64,000 nt of DNA from an uncultured Clostridia bacterium (GTDB lineage Bacteria > Bacillota > Clostridia > Christensenellales > UBA1242), in contig CAJOLY010000004.1 of assembly GCA_905235485.1 (NCBI GenBank), positions 175 through 64,174 of the forward strand, in the 5' to 3' direction. The position numbers and the translations under genes were made by a program. Every line of letters begins with the position of its first letter. Within the stretch, counting starts at the first letter, position 1. Positions 16,857 through 62,214 of this stretch are shown here, one piece after another. The notes beneath the pieces were generated by a model. That model saw nothing but the letters and a program-made list of their open reading frames with translations. It was not told where the DNA came from and made no database searches.

Positions 16857-16874
16857 AACTTTTTTAACTCCTTT

Positions 16875-16955: not shown

Positions 16956-17028
16956 AAAATTTTAAAATTAAAAAATGATTTGTTTTTTTATAAAAAAAAT
17001 GTAAAATTCTTATAGGGGGGAAAAATAT

Positions 17029-18725: not shown

Positions 18726-18760
18726 CACACTTTTTGACACACTTTTTGACACACTTTTTT
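18721..18760 (+). repeat. three tandem copies of TTGACACACTTTT (13-bp period) overlapping the int stop codon
   Basis: The tandem units start about 18722, 18735 and 18748. They share sequence and orientation with the two copies near 14361-14422. Confidence 0.7.
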
Positions 18761-18835
18761 GTTAAAAAACTGTTAAAAATTGTTATATATTTATAATAAA
18801 AATTGTTAGTAAAATCAAACAAAATTACACAAAAA

Positions 18836-18856
18836 AAGCGAGTAAAAAACTCGCTT
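18836..18856 (-). terminator. element-borne terminator for the reconstituted tRNA-Leu
   Basis: AGCGAG...CTCGCT hairpin flanked by an A-run (T-run on the minus strand), immediately after the tRNA 3' end. Confidence 0.55.
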
Positions 18857-18857
18857 T

Positions 18858-18944
18858 TGGTGCCGAAAGCCGGACTTGAACCGGCACGGTATTGCTACCG
18901 AGGGATTTTAAGTCCCTTGCGTCTGCCTATTCCGCCATTTCGGC
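18858..18944 (-). tRNA. tRNA-Leu (anticodon TAA), long variable arm
   Basis: Reverse complement GCCGAAATGGCGGAATAGGCAGACGCAAGGGACTTAAAATCCCTCGGTAGCAATACCGTGCCGGTTCAAGTCCGGCTTTCGGCACCA. Acceptor GCCGAAA/TTTCGGC, anticodon loop CTTAAAA. Confidence 0.95.
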
Positions 18945-18947
18945 AAT

Positions 18948-19021
18948 TGGAGGCACCTCTCGGATTCGAACCGGGGATAAAGGTGTTGCAGACCTCTGCC
19001 TTACCACTTGGCTAAGGTGCC
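18948..19021 (-). tRNA. tRNA-Cys (anticodon GCA)
   Basis: Reverse complement GGCACCTTAGCCAAGTGGTAAGGCAGAGGTCTGCAACACCTTTATCCCCGGTTCGAATCCGAGAGGTGCCTCCA. Anticodon loop CTGCAAC. There is one C-A mismatch in the T stem. Confidence 0.85.
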
Positions 19022-26359: not shown

Positions 26360-28675
26360 ATGCAAAAAAATGGCAAATTGAAAAGAATTTTTATGTTTTT
26401 GATTGCTTTGGTGATGTTTTCATCACCTGTTTTGCTTGCAGGTTGTTCTCTTTTTGATTTTTATCCATCAAACAATAATGATTCGTCGCAAACACATAGT
26501 GGAAATGGAAACAATGGAGGAAACACTTCAGGAGGTAGCGGCTCAGGGGGAAGTGGTGGCAGTGGAAGTAGTTCTGAGGCTCAACCAACCACCACAATTT
26601 ATGACCCACCAACCAAAAATAGAATTTTACTAGATGAATATGATGAATATTTCAAGAATTATAGAATAACTTACAAACCAGGCGAAGTTGATAGAAAAAG
26701 TTTTGATGATGAAATCGTGGCACAAAATCAAAATATTGCAAGACTGGTTTTAAATGGACTATATGATGAATACGGAATAAAACAATATCAGGCACATCCA
26801 AAATTACATAATGATATCGATAATATTCAAATTGAAAATAAATATTTAGCATATGCTAATCAAGATAATGAATTTTTTTTGATTAGGTTAAATGATAATA
26901 ATATAAAGAAACCTTTTACTCACGCAAATGCAATCAACAATGATAGTTTAAATAATGATGAAACTTACAATTATTGGCTTTGGAACACTAACACTAAAGA
27001 TGATAACAACACAGTAACACTTACTAATGTTTCAAAAGAAGAATTTGAAAACGCTGAATTCAAAGCAAAACTTGAACTTGCAGAACTTTTGATACTTTCA
27101 GGTGAAACAATAAATGAAGATGGCAGTGGAACTTTTGCTTATGCCTATAAAACATATTTTGTTGATAATGACACAAAAAAATCATTAAGTTCTAATTATT
27201 TTGAAAATGACAAGTTAAAAGCAGATGCACTTGATGATGTTATTTCAAAAATAAATCATTTAGGATACACTGAACACGACCAAAGTCAACTCAAAAATTT
27301 TGTGCTTAATTACATAATTGGAACAAATTTGGTTAATGCTGATAATCATAGATTTGTTAATTGTTATTATGATGGCAGTCATATTCAAATTGTTAATGAT
27401 TCAAATTATAAAAGATTTTTAACTGATGAAACTTATGCAACAGGCAGAATAATTGGTGACACAATTGGTTTTAGCACTTCAGATAGTGATGATGGCAGTT
27501 TGCTTGGATTGATGTATTATGCAAGCCAATACTTAATATCAACTCAAAATCCAAATTATCAATTTGATGTGTATACTAGCACAAATCCATTTATTGCAAA
27601 CGAAAATAATACAACAACAACTTCAATAAGTTATTCAAATTATAATTTTGACAGTAATGTTAAGGACATTTATGATGCAATTTATAACAATCTCATCAAT
27701 GTTGCAGGGACAAAAGTTAAATTAGATGAATTTGGCAATGCTGAAAAAGATGAAAATGACAATATTATTTATGAATTCAACTCAAATGTTTGGGGATATG
27801 ATGCAAATGGCAATGTAAATTCATTAGATGCAACAGACACTGTTGAGTATAGCGTTGGAACAGGAAGCAATAAAAAAACTTATTCACTTTTTAGTGTTAG
27901 ACTTCCATATTTTAAAAATTATTACAATACTGTTAGTTTCATGATTCGTGATATGTTTCAAGACGAGCCTTCGGCTCAAACAAGAGCAGAATGGGAAAAT
28001 GAGCATGGTTTTGAATATCCTTATGATTCCAATTTTCCAAATGTTCCTTTAAGTTATTTTTCAGATTTCAATTCAGATGAAATGCTTATGGACGATAACC
28101 TAAACATCATTATGAAAGATGCAGGATATCAGTCGTATCAAAGCTTTTTGATAATGCCAAGTCAAGATATTTATTTGAAAGATGCAACGATATGGTTTGA
28201 TGCATCGTCTGGTTATGAATCTGAAGAAAGCAATTTGGAAATTACTTTGTATGCTAGGTATTATGATAAAGAGTCAAAATCTTATGCCGTTTGGGAAAAT
28301 GATGATGGATACACTGAGTTTTACAAAATAGGTACTGTTAATGTTCCATTTATAAATGAATATGGGGACTGTGAATATCTTGACATAGATTTGAGAGAGA
28401 TTCTTGGCAATGCAATTATAAATGGTGAACAAAAAGCAAATTATTTACTCAACGAATTCAATACACCAACTGAAACTGTAGATAAAAAAACCTTAATATC
28501 AAAAGAAAACTATGGCTATTGGTTTGACTATGGCACAACCCCAGAAGGCAAAGAAATTGTGTGCTTTAATGGTAAACTTGCAAATAGCTCAAGTTATCTT
28601 GAAATTGTATTTTACACTGAGTCTGATGCACCATTTATGTTCTCATTTTGTCCAGAAACAAGTTATAAAGTATAA
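26360..28675 (+). CDS. large lipoprotein (771 aa), function unknown
   Basis: Signal peptide with lipobox LLAGC-S, a Gly/Ser/Asn-rich linker, and an N/D/Y-rich body with no recognisable catalytic motif. Confidence 0.7.
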   Translation: MQKNGKLKRIFMFLIALVMFSSPVLLAGCSLFDFYPSNNNDSSQTHSGNGNNGGNTSGGSGSGGSGGSGSSSEAQPTTTIYDPPTKNRILLDEYDEYFKNYRITYKPGEVDRKSFDDEIVAQNQNIARLVLNGLYDEYGIKQYQAHPKLHNDIDNIQIENKYLAYANQDNEFFLIRLNDNNIKKPFTHANAINNDSLNNDETYNYWLWNTNTKDDNNTVTLTNVSKEEFENAEFKAKLELAELLILSGETINEDGSGTFAYAYKTYFVDNDTKKSLSSNYFENDKLKADALDDVISKINHLGYTEHDQSQLKNFVLNYIIGTNLVNADNHRFVNCYYDGSHIQIVNDSNYKRFLTDETYATGRIIGDTIGFSTSDSDDGSLLGLMYYASQYLISTQNPNYQFDVYTSTNPFIANENNTTTTSISYSNYNFDSNVKDIYDAIYNNLINVAGTKVKLDEFGNAEKDENDNIIYEFNSNVWGYDANGNVNSLDATDTVEYSVGTGSNKKTYSLFSVRLPYFKNYYNTVSFMIRDMFQDEPSAQTRAEWENEHGFEYPYDSNFPNVPLSYFSDFNSDEMLMDDNLNIIMKDAGYQSYQSFLIMPSQDIYLKDATIWFDASSGYESEESNLEITLYARYYDKESKSYAVWENDDGYTEFYKIGTVNVPFINEYGDCEYLDIDLREILGNAIINGEQKANYLLNEFNTPTETVDKKTLISKENYGYWFDYGTTPEGKEIVCFNGKLANSSSYLEIVFYTESDAPFMFSFCPETSYKV

Positions 28676-28701
28676 AATATTATAAAATTTTCAAAAAACT
28701 A

Positions 28702-28730
28702 TTCACATTTAAAAAAATATTTGTTATAAT
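28702..28730 (+). promoter_or_regulatory. sigma-A-type promoter TTCACA-17-TGtTATAAT
   Basis: -35 at 28702-28707, a 17-nt spacer, TG at 28722-28723, and -10 at 28725-28730. It lies about 20 nt upstream of the RBS of the membrane protein gene. Confidence 0.55.
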
Positions 28731-28750
28731 ACAAAAAAAGGAGTAGGCTT

Positions 28751-28987
28751 ATGGCAGTATTTCAATTAAATCAATTGATGGGAATCGGCGAGTTCTTTAG
28801 CGAGTTTTTTAGAAGTATTTGGGAACTTATTGGCCGCGCATTTTATTGGTTGATTATTTGTGCAATTGGTAGAATTGCTGATATATGTCAACTAATTTTC
28901 CGTAAGTTTGCTGGTATTTCAAATACTGGTGTACAGATTACTGAAGGTGGAGTTACAACTCAAGTTGATTCTTGCTTTTATCAATAG
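28751..28987 (+). CDS. N-terminal piece (78 aa, 1 TM) of the VirB6-like membrane protein, or a separate small membrane protein
   Basis: Strong RBS AAGGAG and an ATG start. It ends in a TAG that lies inside the open downstream frame. Confidence 0.6.
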   Translation: MAVFQLNQLMGIGEFFSEFFRSIWELIGRAFYWLIICAIGRIADICQLIFRKFAGISNTGVQITEGGVTTQVDSCFYQ

Positions 28988-31118
28988 CAACATCGTTAAA
29001 AACTTGTTTTTTGCATTGCTTATCCTTGCAATTGTAATTTTACTTATCACAACTTTTGCAGCAACAATCAAAACTGAATTTAATAAGGATGGCAACAATA
29101 ATAAAAGAAAAGTTATAAAAAATGCATTTAGAGGCCTTGCAAACTTTGTTCTTGTTCCACTAATTTGCTTTTTTGCTTTGTTTGTTGGCAATATGCTTTT
29201 AAGAGCAATTGATGGAGCGACAAGCGGTGGTAGTTCTGTTTATTTATCAAGACAAATGTTTATGGCTGGTGCATATAATGCCAATCGTGTGAGACAAGAT
29301 GAAGTTGAAGGTGAAGATGCAGTCAGATATAAGGAGACAAGTGATGATCATTTTTCTTATGGGGCACTTATTGTTGGAGTAGATGGTAGTGGCACTGGCT
29401 ATGGTAATTTTGGAATTTTCATTGACGATACTTCCGGAAAAAACCAAAGACGAGCTGCTGATAAGATAGATGATTTTTTTGCTAATGGTTACTCGATTAC
29501 TATTGGTAGTGGTGTCTTTAATGGTGATGAATATTCTAAGATTATAAATAAAAAAAGGGTATCAGATGTTAGTTTTTCGTCAGGCGATTCAGCAAATGCA
29601 AATACTTTAGCGTTCAAAGAAACCGAGTTTTATAATGGTGGAAAGGGAATGAAGATTGCAAGTAATGTTAATTTTTTACATCAAGGAGAAAATGAAGAAG
29701 TAGAAAATAAAAAAGTTGCTGCAAAAACTGGAATGATTACTTTTGAAGAAGGCGACACTGTTTATTTTTCAATTTACAACATTGGATTGGTCTATTATTA
29801 TTATGATTTGACGCTAACTGGATTTAATTACATAATTTCTGCAATTGCATTGTTCTTTTGCGCTTGGGTTCTTATAGTTACCGTTTTAGGACTTATCAAA
29901 CGTATATTTATGTTGTCAACATTGTTTATAATTTCTGCACCAATTTGTGCAATTTATCCTTTGGATGATGGTAAGGCGCTGGAACAATGGCGAAAAGAAT
30001 TTATCAAAGAAACATTGTCGGCTTATGCAGTTGTTGTTGTTATGAATATATTCCTGGCTTTGTTGCCTTTGATGTCAAAAATGAATGTATTTGTTAGTGG
30101 TGAACTATGGATTTTTACAGGTTTTGCAAATCATATTGCAAGAGTACTTATTGTGGTTGCAGCCTTAACATTCTTTAAAGATGCAACAAAAACAATTGCA
30201 TCATTGATTGGCGCTGGAGATTCATATGATGCTGGAGATGGCGCAAAGAAAAATTTCGCAACAAATGTTGGAAGAGTTGCAGCAGGTGGTGCAGTTGCTT
30301 TGGGTACAGGAGCTTTGGTTGGTAAAGGTATTGGTAAACTTATTGGCTTAGGAGCTGGTGCAGTAAGCAAAATGAAAGATAATAGCTTTGCAAAAAGCGC
30401 TGCTAGCAATGAATTGGCTAGACGACAAAAGGCTTTGGAAGAAGCAGGAGTTGAAGGGAAAGCTGAGAATTCTACAGATGCTATAGGTGATGGCTCAACA
30501 TCAATGAATTCCTCAAATGCTTCTAATGTTGTTCAAACTCAATCTAATCCAAATTCTGCAGTATCTAACTCAATGAATAATAACACTGCTCAAAAGGATA
30601 AGCCAATAGATTGGCATTATGAAAGAAAAAAAGCGCAATATGAAAAAAGGCGTAATAATAGAATTACAAGTCTAGAAGCTCGTTATGACAAAAAAACTTC
30701 ATTAGTAGATGGAAATATTGAACTAGAAGATGAAGAAAAGAAAAAAATGAATGAAAAATTAACTAATAAATTGAAAAGGCGAAAAGAAAGAGTTAATAAT
30801 AGGCTTGATAAAAAGGAATATAACTTGACTGATGAAGGTATTAAAGAAAGAAATAAGAAAAGAACCAATTTCATTAAAAAAGTCAAGGATAACCATTTCA
30901 CCAGATTTGTGGGTGGAACAGTGGATGCTATTAAAGGCATTGCAAAAGGCGACTTAAATATGAAAGAGGCTTGGAAAGATTCAACTACCAAAGGAAGCAA
31001 AGCATATAGAGATAAACAACAGAAAGATGCTGAAAAGAAAAAAGCACAAGTTGAAGCAAAACAAAGAGAAGAAATGCTCGAAACCCTTAAGAATATTGAA
31101 AAGAATAGTAAAAAATAA
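28908..31118 (+). CDS. polytopic membrane protein, VirB6/ConG/TrbL-like architecture; start unresolved (probably joined to 28751 by a frame change)
   Basis: At least 6-7 hydrophobic helices, an external loop of about 200 aa, and a long K/E/R-rich C-terminal tail. There is no ATG and no good RBS in the first ~95 codons (only TTG at 28908 and 28965). Confidence 0.6.
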   Translation: MLVFQILVYRLLKVELQLKLILAFINSNIVKNLFFALLILAIVILLITTFAATIKTEFNKDGNNNKRKVIKNAFRGLANFVLVPLICFFALFVGNMLLRAIDGATSGGSSVYLSRQMFMAGAYNANRVRQDEVEGEDAVRYKETSDDHFSYGALIVGVDGSGTGYGNFGIFIDDTSGKNQRRAADKIDDFFANGYSITIGSGVFNGDEYSKIINKKRVSDVSFSSGDSANANTLAFKETEFYNGGKGMKIASNVNFLHQGENEEVENKKVAAKTGMITFEEGDTVYFSIYNIGLVYYYYDLTLTGFNYIISAIALFFCAWVLIVTVLGLIKRIFMLSTLFIISAPICAIYPLDDGKALEQWRKEFIKETLSAYAVVVVMNIFLALLPLMSKMNVFVSGELWIFTGFANHIARVLIVVAALTFFKDATKTIASLIGAGDSYDAGDGAKKNFATNVGRVAAGGAVALGTGALVGKGIGKLIGLGAGAVSKMKDNSFAKSAASNELARRQKALEEAGVEGKAENSTDAIGDGSTSMNSSNASNVVQTQSNPNSAVSNSMNNNTAQKDKPIDWHYERKKAQYEKRRNNRITSLEARYDKKTSLVDGNIELEDEEKKKMNEKLTNKLKRRKERVNNRLDKKEYNLTDEGIKERNKKRTNFIKKVKDNHFTRFVGGTVDAIKGIAKGDLNMKEAWKDSTTKGSKAYRDKQQKDAEKKKAQVEAKQREEMLETLKNIEKNSKK

Positions 31119-31128
31119 TAATTTTTGG

Positions 31129-31161
31129 AAAGAGGATAATGAAAATATATCCTCTTTTTTT
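31129..31161 (+). terminator. intrinsic terminator
   Basis: AAGAGGATA...TATCCTCTT stem plus T-run. Confidence 0.75.
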
Positions 31162-31180
31162 AAAAAGATAGTGATTTATT

Positions 31181-31209
31181 TTGCAAAAAATAAAATTATC
31201 ATATATAAT
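31181..31209 (+). promoter_or_regulatory. sigma-A-type promoter TTGCAA-17-TATAAT
   Basis: -35 at 31181-31186 and -10 at 31204-31209 with exact 17-nt spacing, about 40 nt upstream of the ATPase start. Confidence 0.55.
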
Positions 31210-31249
31210 AATAATACATTATTTGAACAAAATAAATAAGAGGTTTTTT

Positions 31250-33931
31250 ATGATTAGATATATCCCTAGAAAAACAAAAATAAGAATGGAACTTTTACCT
31301 CATGTAACATTGCCTGATGTTATTGTTGGTGTTTTTGCCATTGCAATTCTTATTTTGATTATTACAAGTAATTTGCCATATAAATGGTTTATTGCACTTT
31401 CAGTTCTTGCATTTGAAGTTTTGTTATATTTCCCTGTTGCAGATGGTGAAAGAGCATATTACACAACCATATTATTATTTAGGTTTTTTGCATTCAAGAA
31501 AAAATATTCTAGAGATACGCTAAAGGGTTATGAAAACGTTAATAAGTTAATTCCATATCAACATATATTGGAAGAAAGATTTCTTGATTATGGCGAATAT
31601 TATGGCATGGTTTTGCAAATCACACCTGTCGAATTTTTTCTTCTAACAGAAGATAAACAGGACGCATACATTAGAAGTTTTAAAAACGCACTTGCTCGTC
31701 TCAACGTTGACCAAGATTGTGAACTTGTCAAAATCAATAAAGCAGTTTTGTATGATGACTACATAGCAGATGATGAAAAGAAATATTCTGCTCTTATGGA
31801 AGCAGCAGAGCAAGGTGAAATTACTCAAAAAGAACTTGATGGTAGAACTTATGTTTTCCAATCTCGAGTTAAACAATATATTGCCGCAAATGAAGAAAAT
31901 AAAATGTATGAAGATTGCTTTTATCTTGTTGTGTTTGATAAAGATAAAACTGCTCTTTATGACACAATGGAAGGTCTTCAATCAGCACTAGCTGGTGGTC
32001 AAACGCCGATACATAGCAAAATTTGTATGGCAAAAGATCTTTCAATATTCTTAAAAGCAAACTATACAAAAGAGTTTGACGAGCGAGAAACAGAAGCAAA
32101 AGGTTCAGAAGGTCTTGTTGAATGGACAATGCCTGAAAAAGTGCAATTTAAAACAGCTCAAACGTTGATTGATGGAAAAGCATATAGGCATTTTTGCATC
32201 ACTGATTATCCTCTTCAAGTTGGTAATGCTTGGGCATATAATATCTTTGCAATGCCAGCAACAAAATGTGTTGTAAAAATCAAACCAATGATGCGTTTTG
32301 ATGCTGAAAAGGAAGTTGATAAAGCCATTTTGGAAATGGAAACAAAAACAATGTATTCTGCTCGTGAAAGTAAGCAAATTGAAAATGAAACTCATCTTCA
32401 AACACTAAGACAACTTTTGATCGATATCAAAAACAGCAATGAAAATCTTTACAAATGCAATTTTTTCATCACTTGTGAAGATTATATGAAAAAAGAAATG
32501 AGAGCACTTCTTAAACAATATGGGTTTAAATATTCAGAAATGTTTGGTCGTCAAGTTGATGCTTTTGTAAGTAGTAATATTTCAAGAATCAACACAGTAA
32601 AGGAACATGTACGTGGAATCAATGGAACTCCGCTTTCTGGAATGTTTCCGTTCATTTCGAACACAATAAGTGATCCTGGTGGTTTCTATTTAGGATATAA
32701 CGCAAATGGAAGAGTTTTTGTTAATTTTTTCAGACGTGACGAAGAACGTGTAAATAGTAATATGATGGTTATTGGAAAATCAGGTGGAGGAAAATCGTTT
32801 GCCACCAAAAACATTCTTTCTAATATGGCAGGCGACAACAGCCGAATTTTCGTTCTTGACCCTGAAAGTGAATATGTAAATTTGGCACATAATTTAGGTG
32901 GAAAAACTATTGATGTTGGTAGTGGACTTCAAGGAAGAATCAATCCGTTCCATATCACACCTAGTTTGAAAGGCGATGATGACAGTGAGGTAGCTCTTGA
33001 TGATTATTCTGCACATTTGCAATTTTTGGAAGAATTTTTCCACATTATTTTGGCTGGAATCAATAGTGACGCATTTGAAAAAGTTAATAGTTTGGTTATT
33101 GAATGCTATAAAAATAAGGGAATTGATAGTGACACTGATCTTACAAAGTTAAAGCCAGAAGATTTTCCAATTTTTGACGATTTGTATGCTTTAATTTTAA
33201 GAGATATAAATAAGGAAAAAGATGAATATATCAAACGTATTTATCAAACTATGGAGCTTTACATTAAAAAATTTGCAAAAGGTGGAAGAAATTCAACTCT
33301 TTGGAACGGTCCAACAACACTCGAAACAAAAGAGAACTTTGTTGTATTTAGTTTCCGTTCACTTCTTGCGAACAGCAATAAAACTCTTGCAAACGCACAA
33401 ATGTTGCTTGTTTTGAGATATTTGAACAATGAAATTATTAGAAATAAAGACTACAACACTATGATGGGCTATGGTGAAGCTGACCCTGGAAGAAGAAAAA
33501 TTATCGTTGCAGTCGATGAAGCCCACGTGTTTATTGATGAAGAATATCCAATTGCTTTGAACTTTATGGAAGACTTAGCAAAACGTATCAGAAAATATGA
33601 TGGAATGCAAATTATTATCACTCAAAACATTAAAGACTTCGTTGGTTCAACTGCAATTCAAAAACAAAGTACAGCAATCATTAATGCGAGCCAATTTACA
33701 ATGGTTTTGCCGCTTGCTCCAAATGATATGAGTGACCTTGTTGAACTTTATCGAAATGCAGGAGGTATCAATACTGACGAGCAACAAGCTATTGTTCAAG
33801 CTACTCGAGGTGAAGTTTTCTTTATCACATCAGCCAATTCTCGTGTATTCCTAAAAATTGAAGCGCTTGACGATATTAGGCTTATGTTCCAAACAAAGAA
33901 TTTCTTTGAAGAAAGAAGTAAAGCCTCTTAA
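31250..33931 (+). CDS. VirB4/ConE/TrsE-family type IV secretion ATPase with fused N-terminal two-TM (VirB3/PrgI-like) segment
   Basis: N-terminal TM hairpin (VIVGVFAIAILILIITSNL; WFIALSVLAFEVLLYFPV). Walker A MVIGKSGGGKSFATK, VLDPESEY, Walker B IVAVDEAHVFID, IIITQNIKDF, and a C-terminal RGEVFFI. AAGAGG RBS before the ATG at 31250. Confidence 0.8.
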   Translation: MIRYIPRKTKIRMELLPHVTLPDVIVGVFAIAILILIITSNLPYKWFIALSVLAFEVLLYFPVADGERAYYTTILLFRFFAFKKKYSRDTLKGYENVNKLIPYQHILEERFLDYGEYYGMVLQITPVEFFLLTEDKQDAYIRSFKNALARLNVDQDCELVKINKAVLYDDYIADDEKKYSALMEAAEQGEITQKELDGRTYVFQSRVKQYIAANEENKMYEDCFYLVVFDKDKTALYDTMEGLQSALAGGQTPIHSKICMAKDLSIFLKANYTKEFDERETEAKGSEGLVEWTMPEKVQFKTAQTLIDGKAYRHFCITDYPLQVGNAWAYNIFAMPATKCVVKIKPMMRFDAEKEVDKAILEMETKTMYSARESKQIENETHLQTLRQLLIDIKNSNENLYKCNFFITCEDYMKKEMRALLKQYGFKYSEMFGRQVDAFVSSNISRINTVKEHVRGINGTPLSGMFPFISNTISDPGGFYLGYNANGRVFVNFFRRDEERVNSNMMVIGKSGGGKSFATKNILSNMAGDNSRIFVLDPESEYVNLAHNLGGKTIDVGSGLQGRINPFHITPSLKGDDDSEVALDDYSAHLQFLEEFFHIILAGINSDAFEKVNSLVIECYKNKGIDSDTDLTKLKPEDFPIFDDLYALILRDINKEKDEYIKRIYQTMELYIKKFAKGGRNSTLWNGPTTLETKENFVVFSFRSLLANSNKTLANAQMLLVLRYLNNEIIRNKDYNTMMGYGEADPGRRKIIVAVDEAHVFIDEEYPIALNFMEDLAKRIRKYDGMQIIITQNIKDFVGSTAIQKQSTAIINASQFTMVLPLAPNDMSDLVELYRNAGGINTDEQQAIVQATRGEVFFITSANSRVFLKIEALDDIRLMFQTKNFFEERSKAS

Positions 33932-33937
33932 AATTAG

Positions 33938-33970
33938 AAAAAAGCAAACAATGATTTTGTTTGCTTTTTT
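33938..33970 (+). terminator. intrinsic terminator
   Basis: AAAAAGCAAACA-ATGATTT-TGTTTGCTTTTT. Confidence 0.8.
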
Positions 33971-34140
33971 CTGTGGAAATATAAAAAAATTTTAATTATT
34001 GTTATAAAAATTGCAAAAAAACAGCATTTTTTCTGTTTTTATTTAAAAAATTTAATATTTTTTCAATTTTTTTATAAAAGAAATAAAAATTTAAATATGA
34101 TTATCATTTTTATAAATATAAAAAAATTTTTGAATGGCTA

Positions 34141-34169
34141 TTGCAAAAAAAATATTTATATGTTATAAT
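34141..34169 (+). promoter_or_regulatory. sigma-A-type promoter TTGCAA-17-TGtTATAAT
   Basis: -35 at 34141-34146 and -10 at 34164-34169 with an upstream TG. GGAGGTG RBS follows. Confidence 0.55.
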
Positions 34170-34195
34170 TATGCTAATAATATGGAGGTGATAAT

Positions 34196-36016
34196 ATGCC
34201 TATTGAAAAGAAAAAGAAAAAAGATCAAGAACATGAAGTTCTTTCAGTTGTAAATAACTTTGATATTGCAAATCAGGTAAATGATGTTGCAAGTTCAGAT
34301 GTAATTGATATGATTAAAAATAAAAAAGGTGTTTATGAAGTAAAAAAAGCACAAAATTTTGCACAAGAAAATATAAAAAGTGATGACGACATTTTTAACT
34401 CAGATGATTATTTTTTTGACATCGATAAAAATAAATTATTGGATTTAAATAATTTATCAAAAAATGATGCTAAAAATGATGCTCAAGAATCTGATGATGA
34501 TTTTAATGCATTAGTAAATGAAAAATTCAGTGAGATAATTAAAGCGGATAAAGAAAAAAGTGATAAATTCATTGCAGGCTTGAAAGCATCTCATCCAAAT
34601 GATTATGACAGTTATGTCGAAAAAATTAGAAAAACGAAATATTACAAAAAATGCCTTGATAAATGGACTAAATATTATTCAGATTTGAAGCAAAAATGTG
34701 CAGAAGATCTACAAAATGAAATTGAAGTTGATGCAAAAAATCAAGCATCAAATTTGGCTGATGTAAAAGTTGCTGTGCCACAAATAAAAGAACAATCACA
34801 ATTAAAAGACAATGAGATTCCAAAGGAAAATACAGTTACACCTCCAAGTTTAGAACTCAATATTGACGAACTAGATGCTTCTAGTTATGTTCGTTTAACA
34901 TCTAAAGGTGGCTTGCCAGTTGATTCAAAATTAGTGGCAACAGTTCAAGATGTTTTACTTGATGCTTTGTATAAAAGTTTCCAAGAAACAAGCGATTATT
35001 ACAACAGTTTGAGCGTCTCTCCAAAACTTGCAAAGAAAAATGTTTCTACTGTTGATTTTAGAAAAGAACTTTCAAATAATTTACAGCAAGTTCATAACAA
35101 AGTAATTCCAAATCAATCATCACTTGATATTGCGAATATCAAAGTAATTCAAAAGGATATTGAGGAGCGTGCTGGGGTTAATATGAATGCATTTTCAACT
35201 GCTGAAGTATTTGTAGACAAGTTGTATCATATTGATCTAACAACAAAAGAAGTTTCTGGAATGATTCCTGATTTAGCTTTAGATTTATCAGAAAAAATTC
35301 AAGACATACTAATCTCTAATGGTGTGCCATATTTTAACATTACAAAAGATAATGTTATCGGAATTCTTGATAAAATGGTTGATGATTCAAAACTTGGTGT
35401 GACTTTAAAAGAAGAAACATCAAAAGACAATGAAAATTTATTAGATCTAAAAGCTGGTAATAGGCTTTTGAAAAATACAAATAAGATCGATATTATTTTC
35501 AATTACTTAACTGAGAATTATTTGGAAGATGCATCAGATGCAATGAATGATAACAAATTATCACAATTTAATTATTCAGATGAAAAAGTTAATAATACAT
35601 TAAAAGTAATTTCAGACAGTCTTTTTGGCACAAATACATTAGATATCATTACTTCTAATATAATGGAATGCTTGTCTTTGAGTATTGGACAATGGCTCGC
35701 TTTTGATTTAAAAAATAATGTGAAGCTGAAAAATGATGCCGAATTGGTTAATTTGGTTAAAAAGTTTAATGAGGTAATAAACGCTAATATTGACAAGCTA
35801 ACTATTGATGAAGATAAGAAAGCAACAGCTAACTTGTCTGAGGAAGATAAAAAGATAGCTGCACAAAATCAAGATAGAGCTAAAAAAATTATTTCTGAAT
35901 ATAAAGCTTTGCATGAAGTAATTGTTAATAAAAAATATAAATTACAAAGAGAAGAAGAAATCAATGTAAAAGATAAAATTAAAGAAGTTTACAATAATAA
36001 ATCTGTTGATTTATAA
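34196..36016 (+). CDS. acidic D/N/K-rich 606-aa protein, function unknown (no signal peptide, no TM)
   Basis: Long ORF with a strong RBS and no recognisable motif. Confidence 0.6.
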   Translation: MPIEKKKKKDQEHEVLSVVNNFDIANQVNDVASSDVIDMIKNKKGVYEVKKAQNFAQENIKSDDDIFNSDDYFFDIDKNKLLDLNNLSKNDAKNDAQESDDDFNALVNEKFSEIIKADKEKSDKFIAGLKASHPNDYDSYVEKIRKTKYYKKCLDKWTKYYSDLKQKCAEDLQNEIEVDAKNQASNLADVKVAVPQIKEQSQLKDNEIPKENTVTPPSLELNIDELDASSYVRLTSKGGLPVDSKLVATVQDVLLDALYKSFQETSDYYNSLSVSPKLAKKNVSTVDFRKELSNNLQQVHNKVIPNQSSLDIANIKVIQKDIEERAGVNMNAFSTAEVFVDKLYHIDLTTKEVSGMIPDLALDLSEKIQDILISNGVPYFNITKDNVIGILDKMVDDSKLGVTLKEETSKDNENLLDLKAGNRLLKNTNKIDIIFNYLTENYLEDASDAMNDNKLSQFNYSDEKVNNTLKVISDSLFGTNTLDIITSNIMECLSLSIGQWLAFDLKNNVKLKNDAELVNLVKKFNEVINANIDKLTIDEDKKATANLSEEDKKIAAQNQDRAKKIISEYKALHEVIVNKKYKLQREEEINVKDKIKEVYNNKSVDL

Positions 36017-36054
36017 CGTCAAAAAAATAATAGTGTTGAGGAGACATTGTAATT

Positions 36055-44156: not shown

Positions 44157-45296
44157 ATGGTTAGTAAAGATTTTTTTCAGGCATTGGAAGATTTAGAAAG
44201 TTTAAGAAAAGTTAAAAAGGAAGTGTTTATTGAAGCTTTAGAAACAGCACTCACTTCTGCTTATAAAAGAAATTATGGTGAAGCAAAAAGTGCTTTTGTA
44301 AAACTAAATCCAGACAAATGTAAAATTGAAGTTTTTAGTTATAAAACAGTTGTTGAAAACGAAGAAGAATTCGTTGATCCAGACAAGCAAATTTTGCTCA
44401 GCGATGCAAAACTCATAAAAAAGAGTTACAAGGTTGGAGATCTCGTTCAACAAGAAGAAAATCCTAAGGATTTTGGTCGTATTGCAGTCCAAACAGCAAA
44501 ACAAGTTGTGATGCAAAAACTTAGAGAAGTTGAGAGAAACCAGACAATAAGCGAAATAAGTGAAAAGGAAGACGAACTAGTTACAACAGTGGTTAATCGT
44601 ATTGACGGAGAAAATGTATTTGTTGAATTAGGCACAAATCAAATTGAAGCTGTTATGGGAAAGTCTGATCAAATTCCAGGTGAAAGATATTATGTTAATC
44701 AAAGACTTAAGGTCTATGTTAAAAAAATTAAAGAGGGCGTAAAAGGACCGATGCTTCAAGTATCTCGTGGAAATACAGGTTTTATCAAAAAATTGTTTGA
44801 ACTTGAAATTCCAGAAATTGCAAATGGTGAAGTTGTTATCAATTCAATTTCAAGAGAAGCTGGTTACAGAACAAAAATAGCTGTTTCAACAAGTAATCCA
44901 AATGTTGACCCAATTGGTGCATGCGTTGGAGATAAGGGAATTAGAATAAACACAATCATCACGGAACTTAATGGTGAAAAAATTGATATAATAGAATATT
45001 GTGATGATTTGACTGAATATATTGGCAGATCTTTGAGCCCAGCACCAGTCGAAAGTGTTACAATGATTGGCGAAGGTCAAGCACTTGCAATTGTGCCTGA
45101 TGACAAACTTTCACTTGCTATTGGAAAAAGTGGCCAAAATGTTAGACTTGCTGCAAGACTTACCCACACACGAATTGATGTAAAAAGTCATTCTGCAGCA
45201 CTTGAAGCTAATGCCACAACTAATAAAAATAATGAAATTCCAGACACTGATTTAACAGTTAATCTCGATGACATGTTTAATGATGATGGAGAATAA
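44157..45296 (+). CDS. nusA: transcription termination/antitermination factor NusA
   Basis: S1 and two KH domains (GACVGDKGIRINTI; AIGKSGQNVRLAARL). Confidence 0.95.
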   Translation: MVSKDFFQALEDLESLRKVKKEVFIEALETALTSAYKRNYGEAKSAFVKLNPDKCKIEVFSYKTVVENEEEFVDPDKQILLSDAKLIKKSYKVGDLVQQEENPKDFGRIAVQTAKQVVMQKLREVERNQTISEISEKEDELVTTVVNRIDGENVFVELGTNQIEAVMGKSDQIPGERYYVNQRLKVYVKKIKEGVKGPMLQVSRGNTGFIKKLFELEIPEIANGEVVINSISREAGYRTKIAVSTSNPNVDPIGACVGDKGIRINTIITELNGEKIDIIEYCDDLTEYIGRSLSPAPVESVTMIGEGQALAIVPDDKLSLAIGKSGQNVRLAARLTHTRIDVKSHSAALEANATTNKNNEIPDTDLTVNLDDMFNDDGE

Positions 45297-45302
45297 AACA
45301 TT

Positions 45303-45548
45303 ATGCATAAACCAGTTAGAATGTGTGTTTCGTGCAGAGAAAGACACGAAAAAGATGATTTAATAAGATTGTCAATATCAAATAATGAAATTATTGTTGA
45401 TAACGAAAAAGCATATAATTCTAGGGCGATTTATGTTTGTAAAAATGAAAAATGTATTTCAAACTTAAAAAAGAACAAAGCTATTTCAAGAGCATTTAAA
45501 ACAAATACTAATGATAGCTTTTATGAAAATTTAAAAAATTCAATTTAG
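45303..45548 (+). CDS. ylxR: YlxR/RnpM family RNA-binding protein (DUF448)
   Basis: RMCVSCRERHEKDDLIRL signature, located between nusA and infB. Confidence 0.9.
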   Translation: MHKPVRMCVSCRERHEKDDLIRLSISNNEIIVDNEKAYNSRAIYVCKNEKCISNLKKNKAISRAFKTNTNDSFYENLKNSI

Positions 45549-45558
45549 GAGAAACACT

Positions 45559-47982
45559 TTGAGTAAAGAAACTACAGAAACAAAAAAGAATAATAAAGTT
45601 AGTGCAACTAGTAATCTTAAAAAGCTTGTTGATATCTTTTTTGCAAAGGATGAGTTAAATGCTGTTGATGAGATCAAACAAGCAAGATTGGTTATAAATC
45701 AAATTTGCAAAAATGTTAGAGAAAAGATTTCAAAAATCACAGGTAAACCCGTTGAATTTAGAGAAACAGAAAAAGCAGCAAAAAAAACTACTGCTGTTTT
45801 ACCATCTAAGGGAGTTGACACAAGGGATCCTAACAAGTTGTTTGCTGGAAGTTTTGGAAAAAGCAACCAAAAGCCACAGGGCTCAAGAGTTGGAAGTGCA
45901 AGCTTTGGAGGAAAAAAACCATATGGTGAAAAATCTTTTGCTGGCAAAAATCCGCAAAAACCTTTTGGAAACAAACCTTTTGGACCTAAACCACTAAGTA
46001 GACTTGGAACAGCAGAGGTTGACATTGATCTAAATGCACTCAAAAGCAATGATAGAAATTTTGGAAATAAAAAGAAAACACACGAAGTTCAAGAAAGAAA
46101 GCAAATGAGCAAAAAAGCTCAAATGCGCTGGACTGGTGCGAATGTTGATGATGATAGCGATGTAGTTAGCAGAAAAATTAAAACAAAAAAGAAAGACTCA
46201 AAACCTATTGAAACTGTTAAAATTGAAAATGCTGTTATCAAAACAGAGAATTTAACAGTTAAAATTTTAAGTGAACAAATCGGCGTTGCAGTTCCAGAAA
46301 TCGTAAAAAAATTATTTATTTTAGGAATGATGGCTACAATAAATAGCACTATTGATTTTGAAACAGCTGAACTTGTTAGTAACGAATTTGGTGTAAAGCT
46401 TGAAAAGAAAATTGAAGCTACAGCAGAAGAAAAATTTCAAACAAAACTTGAAAGTGCAATTGATGATGATCCGAGTTTGCTTGTAAAACGACCACCAATT
46501 GTCACCGTTATGGGTCACGTTGACCATGGAAAAACTTCACTTTTGGATGCCATTAGAAAAACAAATGTCGTTTCTGGTGAGGCTGGAGGAATTACCCAAA
46601 GTATTGGTGCGTCAACTACAAAAATCAATGATAGGGTTATCACATTTATTGATACACCAGGGCACGCTGCATTCACTGCTATGCGTGAAAGAGGTGCACA
46701 AATAACAGATATTGCAATTTTGGTTGTTGCAGCTGATGATGGCATAATGCCTCAAACAATTGAAGCAATTGAAGATATAAAGGCAGCAAAGGTACCTATG
46801 ATTGTTGCTATCAACAAAGTTGACAAGCCAGAAGCGAACATTGATAGAGTAATGAAAGAACTAGCTGATCATGGAATTTTGCCAGAAGAATGGGGCGGAG
46901 ATACAATTTGTGTGCCAATTTCCGCAAAGCAAAACAAAAATATTGACAAACTTCTTGAAATGGTTCTTTTGGTTGCAGATGTTCAAGATTTGAAAGCAAA
47001 TCCTTCACGAACTGCAATAGGAACTGTTATTGAGTCAAGACTCGATAAAGGTAAAGGCCCAGTGGCATCAATTCTTGTTCAAAATGGAACATTAAGAGTT
47101 GGTGATACTGTTGTTGCCGGTATCGCTTTTGGTAGAATTCGAGCAATGATGGATGAAAAAGGCAAAAATGTTAAGGAAGCCACGCCATCAATGCCAGTTC
47201 AAATACTAGGTCTTGATGCCGTGCCACAAAGTGGTGATCGATTGATGGTTGTTGATGAAAAGATGAAAGCTGAAATTATTGCTGAAAGAAAGAACAAAAT
47301 CAAGCTATCTAAAATACAATCTCAATCTGCAGTAAGCGTGGATGATTTCTTTAACAAAGTTAAGGAAGGAAATCTTAAACATCTCAACATTATCATAAAA
47401 GCAGATGTTCAAGGTAGTGCAGAAGCTTTAAAAGCAAGCTTAGAAGTACTTAGAAATGAAGAAGCAAAAGTTGTTGTTGTTAATTCAGGCGTTGGAAATA
47501 TCACAGAAAGTGATGTTCTGCTTGCTGAAGCTTCAAGTGCAAAGATTATAGGATTTAATGTTAGAACTGAAGACAAAGCCGAAAACCTTGCAAAACAAGA
47601 TAAAGTTGATATTGAAAATTACAGCATTATTTATGAATGTATAGAAAATGTTGAAAGAGCACTAAAAAGTCTTATGGCTCCAAAATTTGCCGATGTTAGA
47701 ATTGGAACTGTTGAAGTTAGACAATTATTCAAAGTTTCAAGTCTTGGTACAATTGCAGGATGCTATGTTGTGGATGGAAAAGTTAAAAGAGATGCAAAGG
47801 TGCATATCATTAGAAACGGAAAAGATATTGCTGAAGCACCAATTGAAACTTTAAGAGTGCAAAAAGATGAAGTTAAATCTGTTGGAAAAGGCTTTGAATG
47901 TGGAATTAAACTTAAAGACTTTAATGATATTCAAGAACTTGATCAATTTGAAGTGTATGTTACAGAGCAGGTGATGTTATGA
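45559..47982 (+). CDS. infB: translation initiation factor IF-2
   Basis: G domain ([26 protein letters not shown]), TTG start with an AGGAG RBS, and a low-complexity FG/K-rich N-terminal region. Confidence 0.95.
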
Positions 47983-58814: not shown

Positions 58815-60245
58815 ATGGAAGAAAAAAAATTTGTAGCAGAGCTAACAGATATAAATGAAGATTTATCTCAATGGTACACTGATGTTATTACAAAAGCTGA
58901 TTTGTGTGACTATGGCCCAGTTAAGGGAACTATGGTTATCAAGCCATATGGCTATGAAATTTGGGAGCATATAAAGGAATATTTAGATATTGAGTTTAAA
59001 AAAGCTGGTTCAAAAAATGCATATTTTCCAATGTTTATTCCAGAAAGTTTTTTGAAAAAAGAAGCTGAGCACGTTGAAGGTTTTGCACCAGAAGTTGCAG
59101 TTGTGACATATGCTGGTGGCCAAGAACTATCTGAAAAACTCATTGTAAGACCTACAAGTGAAACCATAATTGGTGAAATGTATAGCAAATGGATAAAAAG
59201 TTATAGAGATTTGCCAATGATTATGAATCAGTGGTGTAATGTTGTTAGATGGGAAAAAACAACTCGCCCATTTTTAAGAACTAGTGAATTTTTATGGCAA
59301 GAAGGCCACACAGTGCAAGCAACAGAAAAAGATGCTGTTGACAATACGATTAAAATGCTTGAAGTGTACAAAAAAATGGCAAAAGAATTGCTTGCAATTC
59401 CGGTTTTAAGTGGCAGAAAAACAGAAAGAGAAAAATTTGCTGGAGCAGTTGACACATATGGAATAGAAGCAGTGCTTAGGGACGGAAAATGTCTGCAGGC
59501 TGGCACAAGCCATTATCTTGGTCAAAATTTTGCAAAATCAGCAGACATCAAATTCTTAGATAAAGATGGGGAATGGAAATATGGCTATACAACTTCTTGG
59601 GGCGTAAGTACAAGACTGATTGGCGCAGTTGTTATGGTTCATGGAGATGAAAGAGGAATCAAGCTTCCACCAAAAATAGCACCTATTCAAACTGTGATTG
59701 TTCCAATTGCATGCCACAAGGAAGGAGTACTCGAAAACGTTGAAAAACTTGCATATAGATTAGAACAAGCAGGTATCAGAGTATATGTTGATGACAGCAA
59801 TCAGACAGCTGGTTGGAAGTTTAATCAATGGGAAATGAAAGGTGTTCCACTAAGGCTTGAACTTGGGCCAAGAGATATCGAAAATGGCACAGTAATGGCT
59901 GTTAGGCGTGATACTCACGAAAAAATTTCACTATCATTAAACGATATAGAAAATTCTATAAAAGAACTTCTAGATAACATTCAACAAAATATGTATGATT
60001 TAGCTTATGACTTTGTAAGGCATAATTCTTTTGATGTTAACACAGTTGAAGATATGGTTAACTGTATCAATCAAAAAAAGGTTGCAATGGCATATCACTG
60101 TGGTGATAAAACTTGCGAAGAAGAATTGAAAGCTGAAACAGGTATTCAAAGCAGAGTTATTATCTGCGAAGCTAATGATGAGCAAAAGTGCATTAGATGT
60201 GGCAAAAAAGCTAAACATAAGGCATATTTTGCAAAACAATATTAA
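58815..60245 (+). CDS. proS: proline--tRNA ligase (archaeal/eukaryote-like short type)
   Basis: The N-terminus ...FVAELTDINEDLSQWYTDVITKADLCDYGPVKGTMVIKPYGYEIWE is typical of the 470-480-aa ProRS form. Class II motifs, a C-terminal zinc-binding-type domain, and a terminal Y. Confidence 0.9.
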   Translation: MEEKKFVAELTDINEDLSQWYTDVITKADLCDYGPVKGTMVIKPYGYEIWEHIKEYLDIEFKKAGSKNAYFPMFIPESFLKKEAEHVEGFAPEVAVVTYAGGQELSEKLIVRPTSETIIGEMYSKWIKSYRDLPMIMNQWCNVVRWEKTTRPFLRTSEFLWQEGHTVQATEKDAVDNTIKMLEVYKKMAKELLAIPVLSGRKTEREKFAGAVDTYGIEAVLRDGKCLQAGTSHYLGQNFAKSADIKFLDKDGEWKYGYTTSWGVSTRLIGAVVMVHGDERGIKLPPKIAPIQTVIVPIACHKEGVLENVEKLAYRLEQAGIRVYVDDSNQTAGWKFNQWEMKGVPLRLELGPRDIENGTVMAVRRDTHEKISLSLNDIENSIKELLDNIQQNMYDLAYDFVRHNSFDVNTVEDMVNCINQKKVAMAYHCGDKTCEEELKAETGIQSRVIICEANDEQKCIRCGKKAKHKAYFAKQY

Positions 60246-60249: not shown

Positions 60250-60278
60250 TTGATTTATAAATAAAAATTTGATATAAT
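60250..60278 (+). promoter_or_regulatory. sigma-A-type promoter TTGATT-17-TGaTATAAT driving the large ncRNA
   Basis: -35 at 60250-60255 and -10 at 60273-60278 with an upstream TG, directly after the proS stop. Confidence 0.5.
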
Positions 60279-60284
60279 AATTAA

Positions 60285-60860
60285 ACACTAAAAGTAAGAT
60301 GCAGTATTCTAGTCAAAATGTTTTGCTGGAAGGCGATTTAAAGCGTCGTAGAGCACATCGTTGAAGTTCCTTGTGTTTGCTCTGGTTGCCCAAATCGGTG
60401 TGAATGCTGGGAGTTAAGATTTTTGGGAAAGTTATAATGGCATATAATGTCATCCCAAATTTCGTGGAGACCTAAAAGGTAATAAAGCTAAATTTGTTAC
60501 TAATTGGGATTAAACCTGTATTGCGGTGAACAAAAAGCTGTGTGCAGAGTAGCTTGCTTTGAGTGAACTATTCGGATTGCACATCTAAATGTGCTGAATA
60601 TAGGCCATATGAAGCATACTCTATTGGTGTATGAAAGATAGTTTGCAAAAAAAGATAAGAGCAGGGCATTTTGTCAAGGAAAACTTCTAGACTGTTTGAA
60701 AGAGATATTATAGGGATTATAGTGTACTCTAAGTGGCTATTCGGTGTTATCAAGGCATCAAAAGGAAACTGCTTGCACGGTGACGGCAAGTTGCTTTGTG
60801 GGAAATCCGACCGAACCTAAGGTGCAAGGTTTACTTATAATATTATCTTACTTTCAAGTG
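60285..60860 (+). ncRNA. large structured non-coding RNA, probable OLE (ornate large extremophilic) RNA
   Basis: About 570 nt with no credible ORF and noticeably more GC than the flanks. The ends pair over 10 bp (60291-60300 AAAGTAAGAT with 60845-60854 ATCTTACTTT). Several local hairpins are present, e.g. GCACAT-CTAA-ATGTGC at 60579-60594 and TTGGGA...TCCCAA at 60423-60458. It has its own promoter. It sits directly upstream of a 4-TM protein gene in a nusB-xseA-xseB...argR context. Confidence 0.55.
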
Positions 60861-60877
60861 TTTTTTAATTTAAGAAT

Positions 60878-61444
60878 ATGGAAAAAGAAAATAAAACAAA
60901 TCAAAAAAAGCCAACAAAAACTAAATGGTGGGTACAAATATTTTTTATAACACTTTCGTTATCCTTTTGTTTTAGTATTTTAAGCGAGCTTATACTATCT
61001 AGTGTAAAATCTATACTTATTACAATACTTTCGATTGCTGCATTATTTATATTTATTTTAATTGCAGTGTTTTGCGATATGATTGGTGTTGCAATGGCTA
61101 GCGCTGATATTGCACCATTTATGTCAATGGCATCAAAAAAGATTAAGGGTGCAAAAGAAACTATTAAACTCCTTAAAAATGCAGATAAAACAAGTAGCTT
61201 TTTTTGTGATATCGTTGGAGATGCCTGCGGAATTATTTGTGGAAGTATAGGTGCATCAATAGTTGCAACCATTGCAATAAATGGACAAATTTGGGAAATA
61301 ATTATTGGTGCAATTATAAGTGCAATGATTGCAGGAATAACAGTACTTGGCAAAGCAATAGGAAAATCTATTGCCATCAATGAGTCCAATAAAATCGTTT
61401 TTGGGGTAGGGAAGTTTCTTAGTTTGTTCAAAAAACAAAAATGA
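60878..61444 (+). CDS. four-TM small membrane protein, candidate OLE-associated protein OapA
   Basis: 188 aa with four hydrophobic helices and a duplicated FCD(M/I)(I/V)G motif in helices 2 and 3. It lies immediately downstream of the large ncRNA. Confidence 0.5.
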   Translation: MEKENKTNQKKPTKTKWWVQIFFITLSLSFCFSILSELILSSVKSILITILSIAALFIFILIAVFCDMIGVAMASADIAPFMSMASKKIKGAKETIKLLKNADKTSSFFCDIVGDACGIICGSIGASIVATIAINGQIWEIIIGAIISAMIAGITVLGKAIGKSIAINESNKIVFGVGKFLSLFKKQK

Positions 61445-61463
61445 TTTATAACACATAAATATT

Positions 61464-61495
61464 AAGCTAAATATAATCATTATTTAGCTTTTTTT
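61464..61495 (+). terminator. intrinsic terminator
   Basis: AAGCTAAATA-TAATCAT-TATTTAGCTT plus T-run. Confidence 0.75.
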
Positions 61496-61624
61496 ATATA
61501 TATAATTTAAAATTTCTATAGTAACATTAGTCTGTCTTTAATTATAAATATATAACTATTCTGTATAATTACAATTATAAATTTTATACTTATAAATCAT
61601 TTTAAATATTTATAAAATTTTATT

Positions 61625-61717
61625 TGCATAAATATACAAAAAACGCTTGCATAATTATAAAATGTATTGTATAATTATTTCGTATAAAATGAATAAATAT
61701 CAATGTATATTTATACA
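61625..61717. promoter_or_regulatory. cluster of ARG-box-like AT-rich palindromic sites upstream of argR
   Basis: TGCATAAATATACA (61625-61638), TGCATAATTATAAA (61648-61661), TGAATAAATATCA (61690-61702) and TGTATATTTATACA (61704-61717). All resemble the TGAAT-w4-ATTCA ARG box. Confidence 0.5.
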
Positions 61718-61764
61718 AAATGAAAAATTGTTAGTCATTACTGACAAAATTGAGGTGAAAACTA

Positions 61765-62214
61765 ATGGCAAGAAGTTCAAGACAATCAAAAATTTTGGAA
61801 ATAATTCAGTCAAAAGAAATTGAGACGCAAGATGATTTGGTAAGAGAATTACGCGCTTTAAATTATGACATTACTCAAGCAACAATATCTCGTGACATTA
61901 AAGAACTTGGTCTCATCAAGATTATGACTGATGACAAGCGCTACAAATATGCATATGTAGATAATGCGGAACAACAAGTTAGTGGCAAATATATGCTTAT
62001 TTACAAAGAAGCCATCATAAGCGTAAAAGTGGCTCAAAATCTAGTCGTAATAAAAACGCTTAAAGGTGTTGCAAATGCAATTAGTTCTTATATAGATAAG
62101 TTAAACATAAAAAATGTTTTAGGAACAACTTTTGGCGATGAAACTGTTATGGTTATTTGTCCAACAAATATGGATGCAAATGATGTTTGTGAAAAAATCT
62201 CATCAATGTTTTAA
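61765..62214 (+). CDS. argR: arginine repressor
   Basis: The N-terminal winged helix (RQSKILEIIQSKEIETQDDLVRELRALNYDITQATISRDIKELGLIK) is canonical ArgR/AhrC. A C-terminal oligomerisation domain is present. Confidence 0.95.
   Translation: MARSSRQSKILEIIQSKEIETQDDLVRELRALNYDITQATISRDIKELGLIKIMTDDKRYKYAYVDNAEQQVSGKYMLIYKEAIISVKVAQNLVVIKTLKGVANAISSYIDKLNIKNVLGTTFGDETVMVICPTNMDANDVCEKISSMF

Follow-up and report, generated by a model that had tools for sequence, protein, structure and literature searches.

The window analyzed in this study is a 64,000-nt stretch of contig CAJOLY010000004.1 from an uncultured Clostridia bacterium, and the element in question is ole, a putative gene for OLE RNA located between proS and oapA. 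OLE (ornate, large, extremophilic) RNA is a well-known large membrane-associated bacterial RNA. An earlier reading of this DNA, referred to here as the original prediction, proposed that the gap downstream of proS lacks any credible open reading frame (ORF), is richer in G+C than the neighboring intergenic DNA and probably specifies OLE RNA, and all three propositions held. From the proS stop codon (60245) to the ATG of the next real gene (60878) the gap spans 632 bp, and the only ORFs inside it were short and overlapped each other on both strands (60313-60453 and 60568-60789 on the minus strand; 60671-60820 and 60744-60950 on the plus strand). The G+C content of the OLE region was 37.5%, as compared to a window mean of 30.5% and to 13-20% in the next intergenic region (61400-61700). 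The features of the locus, all on the plus strand, are as follows.

60250-60278 (+): sigma-70-type promoter with an extended -10 element (TTGATT at 60250-60255, a 17-nt spacer and TGaTATAAT at 60270-60278)
60285-60866 (+): predicted ole gene (OLE RNA), ~580 nt, from the base of the extended stem P1 to the U-run
60861-60866 (+): U6 run that abuts the extended P1 on its 3′ side, a candidate 3′-end or partial-termination signal
60878-61444 (+): oapA, encoding a 188-amino-acid membrane protein with a weak CNNM/DUF21 match
61464-61495 (+): hairpin after oapA that resembles an intrinsic terminator (stem, 10 bp; loop, 7 nt), with a U-run (-11.9 kcal/mol, z = -3.65)
61765-62214 (+): argR, identified with Pfam, a conserved neighbor of ole-oapA

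A covariance-model search had been suggested as a check on the prediction. When the window was scanned with Rfam, the OLE RNA family (RF01071) matched 60280-60865 on the plus strand from model position 1 to 616 of 616, scoring 361.5 bits (E = 1.2e-103; gathering score, 50). No competing RNA family with E up to 1 was found in the interval; matches to mir-276 (E = 0.21) and DUF805b (E = 0.47) lay outside it and were dismissed as chance-level. At a threshold of at least 95% conservation, 91 other complete OLE RNAs yielded 154 positions, of which 149 were identical in the window copy, and 131 of the 145 model base pairs with both residues present in the window were canonical or G-U. Highly conserved nucleotides make up ~25% of OLE RNA positions. 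The 582-nt stretch 60285-60866 had a minimum free energy (MFE) of -161.9 kcal/mol (z = -3.41 versus dinucleotide shuffles). Together with an oapA gene downstream, these results make it highly probable that OLE RNA is encoded here, by an ole gene of an uncultured Clostridia bacterium that is AT-rich and forms spores.

The loci used for comparison (designated by L numbers) comprised three loci from metagenome-assembled genomes (MAGs) in a species-level genome collection, four contigs of the same organism (ENA, Logan assemblies), six further loci reached through OapA homologs, and 120 metagenomic OLE loci collected by means of a conserved pattern of 23 bases that spans the P13 region. The relatives were Clostridia or Christensenellales MAGs, and OLE was followed by oapA in all relatives fetched. 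Conservation and promoters were counted over the 91 OLE loci with a complete OLE RNA (from L014-L133), and an alignment of 82 OLE RNAs less than 93% identical pairwise (A1) was used for pairing and covariation, to which all such values below refer. Helix names were assigned by aligning the Rfam model to literature descriptions, and helix lengths were counted between anchors on the alignment. When the structure was projected on A1, 84.4% of cells were paired, whereas column shuffles gave 68.3% and sliding of the partners 47.7% at most, and double-sided changes were present in 149 of 178 pairs. The elements of the predicted fold are listed below.

60285-60300 (+): 5′ strand of P1, the core of which (60291-60300) pairs with 60845-60854
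60285-60289 (+): extension of P1, ACACU, pairing with AGUGU at 60857-60861 (terminal duplex, -15.6 kcal/mol)
60301-60312 (+): 5′ strand of P2 (GCAGU with ACUGU at 60691-60695; CUAG with CUAG at 60687-60690)
60314-60327 (+): 5′ strand of P3/P3.1, a 14-bp long-range helix with 60660-60673
60332-60347 (+): P4a hairpin, GGCGAUUUAAAGCGUC, 16 nt
60348-60368 (+): J4a/5, one strand of the predicted k-turn (OapC site), with the invariant U-G-A at 60362-60364 kept
60367-60413 (+): P5/P5.1, loop GCCCA (94.8% paired; 17 of 20 pairs covary)
60418-60463 (+): P6 with the conserved AAUGGCAU loop (Rfam alignment and covariation)
60464-60470 (+): J6/7, partner strand of the predicted k-turn, GUGGAGA, retained
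60471-60508 (+): P7, its length between anchors within the family range
60516-60547 (+): P8, its length between anchors likewise within the family range
60556-60655 (+): P9 arch, full length
60603-60606 (+): L9.3, palindromic loop GGCC, the published dimer kissing-loop contact
60704-60844 (+): domain 2, with P12, P12.1, P12.2, P14, P14.1 and P15
60704-60714 with 60834-60844 (+): P12 (Rfam alignment and covariation)
60723-60727 with 60822-60826 (+): P12.1 (Rfam alignment and covariation)
60740-60745 with 60810-60815 (+): P12.2 (Rfam alignment and covariation)
60746-60748 (+): site of the missing P13, where GUU alone joins P12.2 to P14
60750-60757 with 60792-60799 (+): P14 (Rfam alignment and covariation)
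60771-60791 (+): P14.1, with a GUGA tetraloop at 60780-60783
60800-60808 (+): P15, GGGAAAUCC (Rfam alignment)

The 10-bp pairing between the ends of the RNA that had been proposed earlier proved to be stem P1. Segments 60291-60300 and 60845-60854 pair perfectly, the helix was present in both the MFE and the centroid folds, and it covaried at nine of 10 pairs, with 85.9% of cells paired; it is unannotated in the Rfam consensus. The two P2 pairings were nearly invariant (98.7% paired for 60301-60305/60691-60695 and 99.7% for 60309-60312/60687-60690), and an OapA contact region has been placed in or near this stem (PMC12265935). P3/P3.1, the proposed membrane-spanning helix of the published model (PMC12265935), covaried at all 14 of its pairs (79.6% paired). 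The assignment of J4a/5 and J6/7 to a k-turn and OapC site follows earlier reports (PMC9723947, PMC12286853). Segment lengths in the window copy were close to or equal to the family medians in P5 (48 nt; median 48), P6 (44; 45) and P9 (90; 87), with P7 at 39 nt (median 45) and P8 at 30 nt (median 26). L9.3 has been identified as an intermolecular kissing loop by cryo-electron microscopy (PMC12286853), and its palindrome was kept yet varied among relatives, from GGCC to GCGC to GUAC, which is as expected for such a loop; dimer formation is predicted for the window RNA. The P14.1 tetraloop was of the GNRA type in all 82 aligned RNAs. In addition, a compensatory change from G-C to A-U was observed at 60726/60823 in P12.1, and P11 was down to 2 bp in the window copy. 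The four local helices named in the original prediction fared unevenly: 60423-60458 falls in P6 and 60772-60790 is P14.1, but no conserved pairing was found for 60535-60555, and 60579-60594 is a thermodynamically favored hairpin of the centroid fold, in competition with the P9 pairing of the Rfam model.

Canonical OLE RNAs possess a hairpin of ~20 nt with a GNRA loop, P13, between P12.2 and P14. Judged from its sequence, the distinctive feature of the window copy is the absence of this hairpin, which had been overlooked in the original prediction; 19 model positions between P12.2 and P14 were skipped in the Rfam alignment. The distance from AGUGG to GGAAAC was 27 nt in the window and ranged from 26 to 29 nt in the eight relatives that were fetched, all of which lack P13 (L001-L003, L008-L011 and L013). 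The same distance in the 120 metagenomic OLEs was 43-46 nt in 106, 34-39 nt in nine and 25-28 nt in five, P13 being absent in only five of the 120. The deletion of P13 turns the four-way junction of domain 2 into a three-way junction, and in P13-less OLEs the helices P12, P12.1, P12.2, P14 and P14.1 were still 86-100% paired. OapB has its primary, high-affinity binding site in P13, a hairpin marked by a GNRA loop and a bulged nucleotide, and P14.1 was reported as a weak secondary site (PMC7936274).

The window copy also has a P4a hairpin of 16 nt rather than the usual 20, without the CCUAAAAA loop motif that is otherwise conserved, and two of its positions, 60338 and 60339, depart from family bases with 98-99% conservation. 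The shortened P4a, like the loss of P13, is common to all close relatives. The loop motif was missing in 12 of 13 P13-less OLEs and kept in 80 of 82 OLEs with P13. As evidence of a coupling between P13 loss and P4a remodeling this was considered and rejected, since on a neighbor-joining tree the P13-less state amounted to two changes, with 13 of 14 P13-less sequences in one group; being essentially one evolutionary event, the association carries no statistical weight. Rfam scores were 480-530 bits for canonical OLEs, 409-414 bits for those with a short P13 and 325-392 bits for those without P13, the range into which the window copy falls.

OLE RNAs without an OapB site have been described before. 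Fernando and Breaker (2024) found OLE in 2,822 Bacillota species, surveyed uncultured gut Clostridia and, with a model of their own, defined a full-length class (at least 390 bits) and a variant 1 (310-390 bits) that occurs mostly in the TANB77 gut clade, has a short P7-P9 and often lacks the OapB site; variant 2 lacks P7 and P8, and the TANB77 and RF39 gut clades have neither OapB nor OapC (PMC11332333). Like variant 1, the window RNA belongs to uncultured gut or rumen Clostridia, has lost the OapB-binding nucleotides of P13 and keeps the highly conserved nucleotides. Its 361.5 bits also fall within 310-390, a band with which the 325-392 bits of its close relatives overlap, but assignment to variant 1 is approximate because this score comes from the Rfam model and the published cut-offs were set with a different covariance model. 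Unlike variant 1, which shortens P7-P9, the window copy has P8 and P9 at full length and P7 only slightly short, and the whole P13 hairpin is lost, not its tip alone. The window RNA appears to lie within the published variation, at its full-length end.

Compared with the canonical OLE of Halalkalibacterium halodurans and Clostridium acetobutylicum, the window locus is alike in P1 through P12.2, P14, P14.1 and P15, in the 149 of 154 invariant nucleotides, in both strands of the predicted k-turn (J4a/5 and J6/7) and the palindromic L9.3, in the proximal extended -10 promoter upstream and oapA immediately downstream, in the neighbors yqhY, nusB, xseA, xseB and argR, and in an anaerobic spore-forming host. 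It is unlike them in lacking P13 and the CCUAAAAA loop of a 20-nt P4a, in scoring ~130-170 bits lower, in the U-run right after P1 and in having no ispA, dxs or recN adjoining it. The presence of OLE in uncultured gut Clostridia, its own promoter and stem P1 (both in PMC3413148), the oapA neighbor and variants without the OapB site are all already published, and the locus therefore adds an example, not a new concept.

Promoter-like sites were no more common in the region (20 found) than in shuffles (21.6 expected), and a single promoter match was therefore rejected as stand-alone evidence. We nevertheless accept the TTGATT-17-TGaTATAAT promoter of the original prediction because its position is conserved: TTGAyw-17-TGnTAtAAT recurred with an unchanged offset in each of the eight clade relatives, where the flanking sequence differed, and a site with at least 10 of 13 matches stood at that position in 68 of 91 OLE loci, as compared to 1.5% of shuffled upstream sequences. 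Across the family, an extended -10 element (TGnTATAAT, with a TTGACA-like -35) was found upstream of P1 in 75% of OLE loci at all G+C contents. The placement of the -10 element predicts a transcription start at ~60285, the base of P1. In B. halodurans, OLE 5′ ends map near the start of P1, and a proximal promoter raised the expression of plasmid-borne OLE >100-fold (PMC3413148).

The ORF at 60878-61444 was identified as oapA because 103 of 111 independent metagenomic OLE loci have an OapA homolog (31-53% identity) in this position, immediately behind OLE and in the same orientation. Its product matched Pfam PF01595 with 26.4 bits, under the cut-off of 28.4, and had 146 database homologs; no family was matched in an NCBIfam scan, and PsbX, returned by a sequence search of solved structures, was discarded as a chance match. 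The original prediction had called this a small protein with four transmembrane spans. Its identity as an OapA homolog stood, and hydropathy showed two long hydrophobic regions (residues ~17-79 and ~112-162) that are long enough for four spans. Like the MpfA/CorB-type CNNM transporters, its all-protein relatives, OapA has a CNNM/DUF21 transmembrane-domain match, albeit a weak one; unlike them, it is the partner of an RNA gene and has neither CBS nor CorC domains. The oapA ATG lies 11 nt past the OLE U-run, and its start region, UUUAAGAAUAUG (60867-60880), contains no recognizable Shine-Dalgarno sequence; GGAG or GAGG is present in L003, L009 and L010.

A run of five to nine U residues followed the 3′ strand of P1 in eight of eight clade OLEs and occurred within 25 nt of it in 16 of 91 others, and the extended terminal duplex ranged from -7.8 to -17.5 kcal/mol. 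Where the spacer to oapA is longer (L009 and L011), the U-run still adjoins P1, and in two P13-less loci (L032 and L051) an ordinary hairpin terminator lies between OLE and oapA instead. No canonical local terminator hairpin was found between the window OLE and oapA. The observations on the U-run suggest partial termination or 3′-end formation at 60861-60866. Partial termination there would fit the finding in B. halodurans that ethanol raised OLE RNA ~7-fold with little change in oapA mRNA (PMC3413148). Since there is no room for an oapA promoter, any termination at the U-run must be leaky.

The OLE ribonucleoprotein is characterized by membrane localization, by stress phenotypes and by binding of OapA, OapB, OapC and bS21. 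By analogy with published work on H. halodurans and C. acetobutylicum, the window RNA would dimerize, using among other contacts its retained L9.3 GGCC loop, the CNNM-like OapA would anchor it at the membrane, and OLE would act as a stress-adaptation ribonucleoprotein. The particle of this lineage would function with no OapB bound at P13; OapB may either be absent, as in other gut clades, or use the retained GNRA loop of P14.1. Stem P1 and the U6 run would bring about partial termination or 3′-end formation, so that the RNA may accumulate well above oapA mRNA. As the lineage keeps all other conserved elements, P13 and the canonical P4a loop are apparently dispensable for the core job of OLE and OapA. 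OLE is among the largest conserved bacterial RNAs of unexplained biochemical function, which makes natural deletion variants useful, and a smaller, three-way-junction domain 2 is on offer for structural work. A bolder proposal, which we regard as rather doubtful, is that the lineage represents a natural minimal domain 2 that is OapB-free at P13, in which the joint loss of P13 and remodeling of P4a would stem from a functional or physical link between the OapB/P13 module and the OapA-side P4a module, and in which P1 with the U-run would double as a leaky intrinsic terminator. The terminator could then set the ratio of OLE RNA to oapA mRNA. If true, the link between P13 and P4a would bear on the debated model that places domains 1 and 2 on opposite sides of the membrane.

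Several points count against the identification of this interval as a working ole gene and against the termination model. OapB, OapC and MpfA are not encoded within the 64-kb window. With neither a Shine-Dalgarno sequence nor room for a promoter of its own, oapA presents an expression puzzle. It is unorthodox for a terminator to be built from a helix with 550 nt between its strands, and the U-run could alternatively be a processing site. Transcript ends, abundance and ribonucleoprotein formation are things that we infer. Finally, the score of the window copy, ~130-170 bits under canonical OLEs, could by itself suggest decay. A decaying relic, its function lost in a reduced gut genome, would accord with that score (361.5 versus 480-530 bits), with the absent P13 and lost P4a loop motif and with a P11 of only 2 bp, but 97% of the family-invariant positions are kept, the change at 60726/60823 is compensatory, the same architecture recurs across relatives whose OapA is 45-80% identical, and both the promoter and oapA are intact. 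We consider decay very unlikely.

Some of the same observations could be explained if the structured region were a cis-acting 5′ leader of the oapA mRNA, exerting riboswitch-like or translational control, and not an independent, stable transcript. The oapA ATG comes only 11 nt after the RNA, no canonical local terminator hairpin intervenes, and oapA has neither a promoter of its own nor a Shine-Dalgarno sequence. However, OLE of B. halodurans is an abundant, very stable and discrete RNA, and ethanol raises OLE but hardly oapA (PMC3413148); in addition, the U-run tracks P1 and not the ATG in L009 and L011, and L032 and L051 have a normal hairpin terminator between OLE and oapA. A leader of this kind is quite improbable on these grounds. 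As for coding capacity, the gap does contain ORFs of 46-73 amino acids on both strands, but these overlap each other and cut across covarying stems, and substitutions among relatives keep pairing rather than reading frames; a protein-coding gap was rejected for these reasons. A different RNA class fits no better, as Rfam returned no other match with E up to 1 apart from the two chance-level ones elsewhere in the window. We find it hardly conceivable that the region encodes small proteins or belongs to another class, and continue to regard it as the ole gene.

Analysis with Pfam confirmed the gene order yqhY (Asp23)-nusB-xseA-xseB-proS-[RNA]-[membrane protein]-argR given in the original prediction. 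Throughout the lineage the order was spoIIIA-asp23 (yqhY)-nusB-xseA-xseB-(proS)-OLE-oapA-argR, and the spoIIIA operon lies upstream in the window as well. Neither ispA nor dxs was present in any of the lineage loci, and ispA, dxs and recN are not adjacent to ole in the window. The rearranged context that had been pointed out, with proS and without ispA or dxs, is real, but it is not peculiar to this genome; being common to the whole lineage, it is a lineage trait. The proS of the window (58815-60245) is of the archaeal type (ProRS-C_1 domain), as is that of L010; that of L011 is of the bacterial type with an editing domain, and L008 and L009 have no proS at that place. ArgR has been named as a partner on the basis of unpublished data (PMC12265935). 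The 320 bp upstream of argR (61445-61764) have a G+C content of 13-20% and several promoter-like sites on both strands. A distant OapA homolog (45% identity) is encoded at 6350-6942 of L012, with a glycosyltransferase gene upstream and bipA downstream, and is preceded by an OLE of 340 bits. The different gene context of this pair suggests that OLE and oapA move as a unit.

Downstream of argR, recN-spoIVB-spo0A follow in relatives, and in this organism their place is taken by ABC-transporter and PadR genes on the opposite strand. This synteny break spans 62318-64000 of the window and 11441-20448 of L004, with genes for an ABC-2 permease, an ABC ATPase and a PadR-domain protein on the minus strand; beyond them lie YgjP-like, CD-NTase C-terminal domain (CBASS-like), integrase and LexA genes.

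OapC is of the YbxF/L7Ae type and OapB of the KOW type (YbzG family); neither L7Ae nor KOW families were represented among the called genes of the window, and two unannotated small ORFs (36055-36303 and 38865-39056) had no NCBIfam or PDB match. The nusA-ylxR-infB operon (44157-47982) lacks an L7Ae-type gene (ylxQ) at the ylxR-infB junction, and pyrH is missing between tsf (37513-38169) and frr (38299-38865), which directly follows tsf. Just upstream of rpsB, a block of conjugation-type genes (26360-36303) includes those for a transmembrane protein of the Mbov_0396/MMCAP2_0566 family (28908-31118) and a DUF87/TraG-type ATPase (31181-33931), along with large ORFs without a family match; the block probably represents an integrated conjugative element or what is left of one. 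An island of unannotated minus-strand ORFs at 15142-19021, with a helix-turn-helix regulator and a tyrosine integrase (17607-18725), adjoins two tRNA genes (18861-19021) and looks like a tRNA-associated integrated element.

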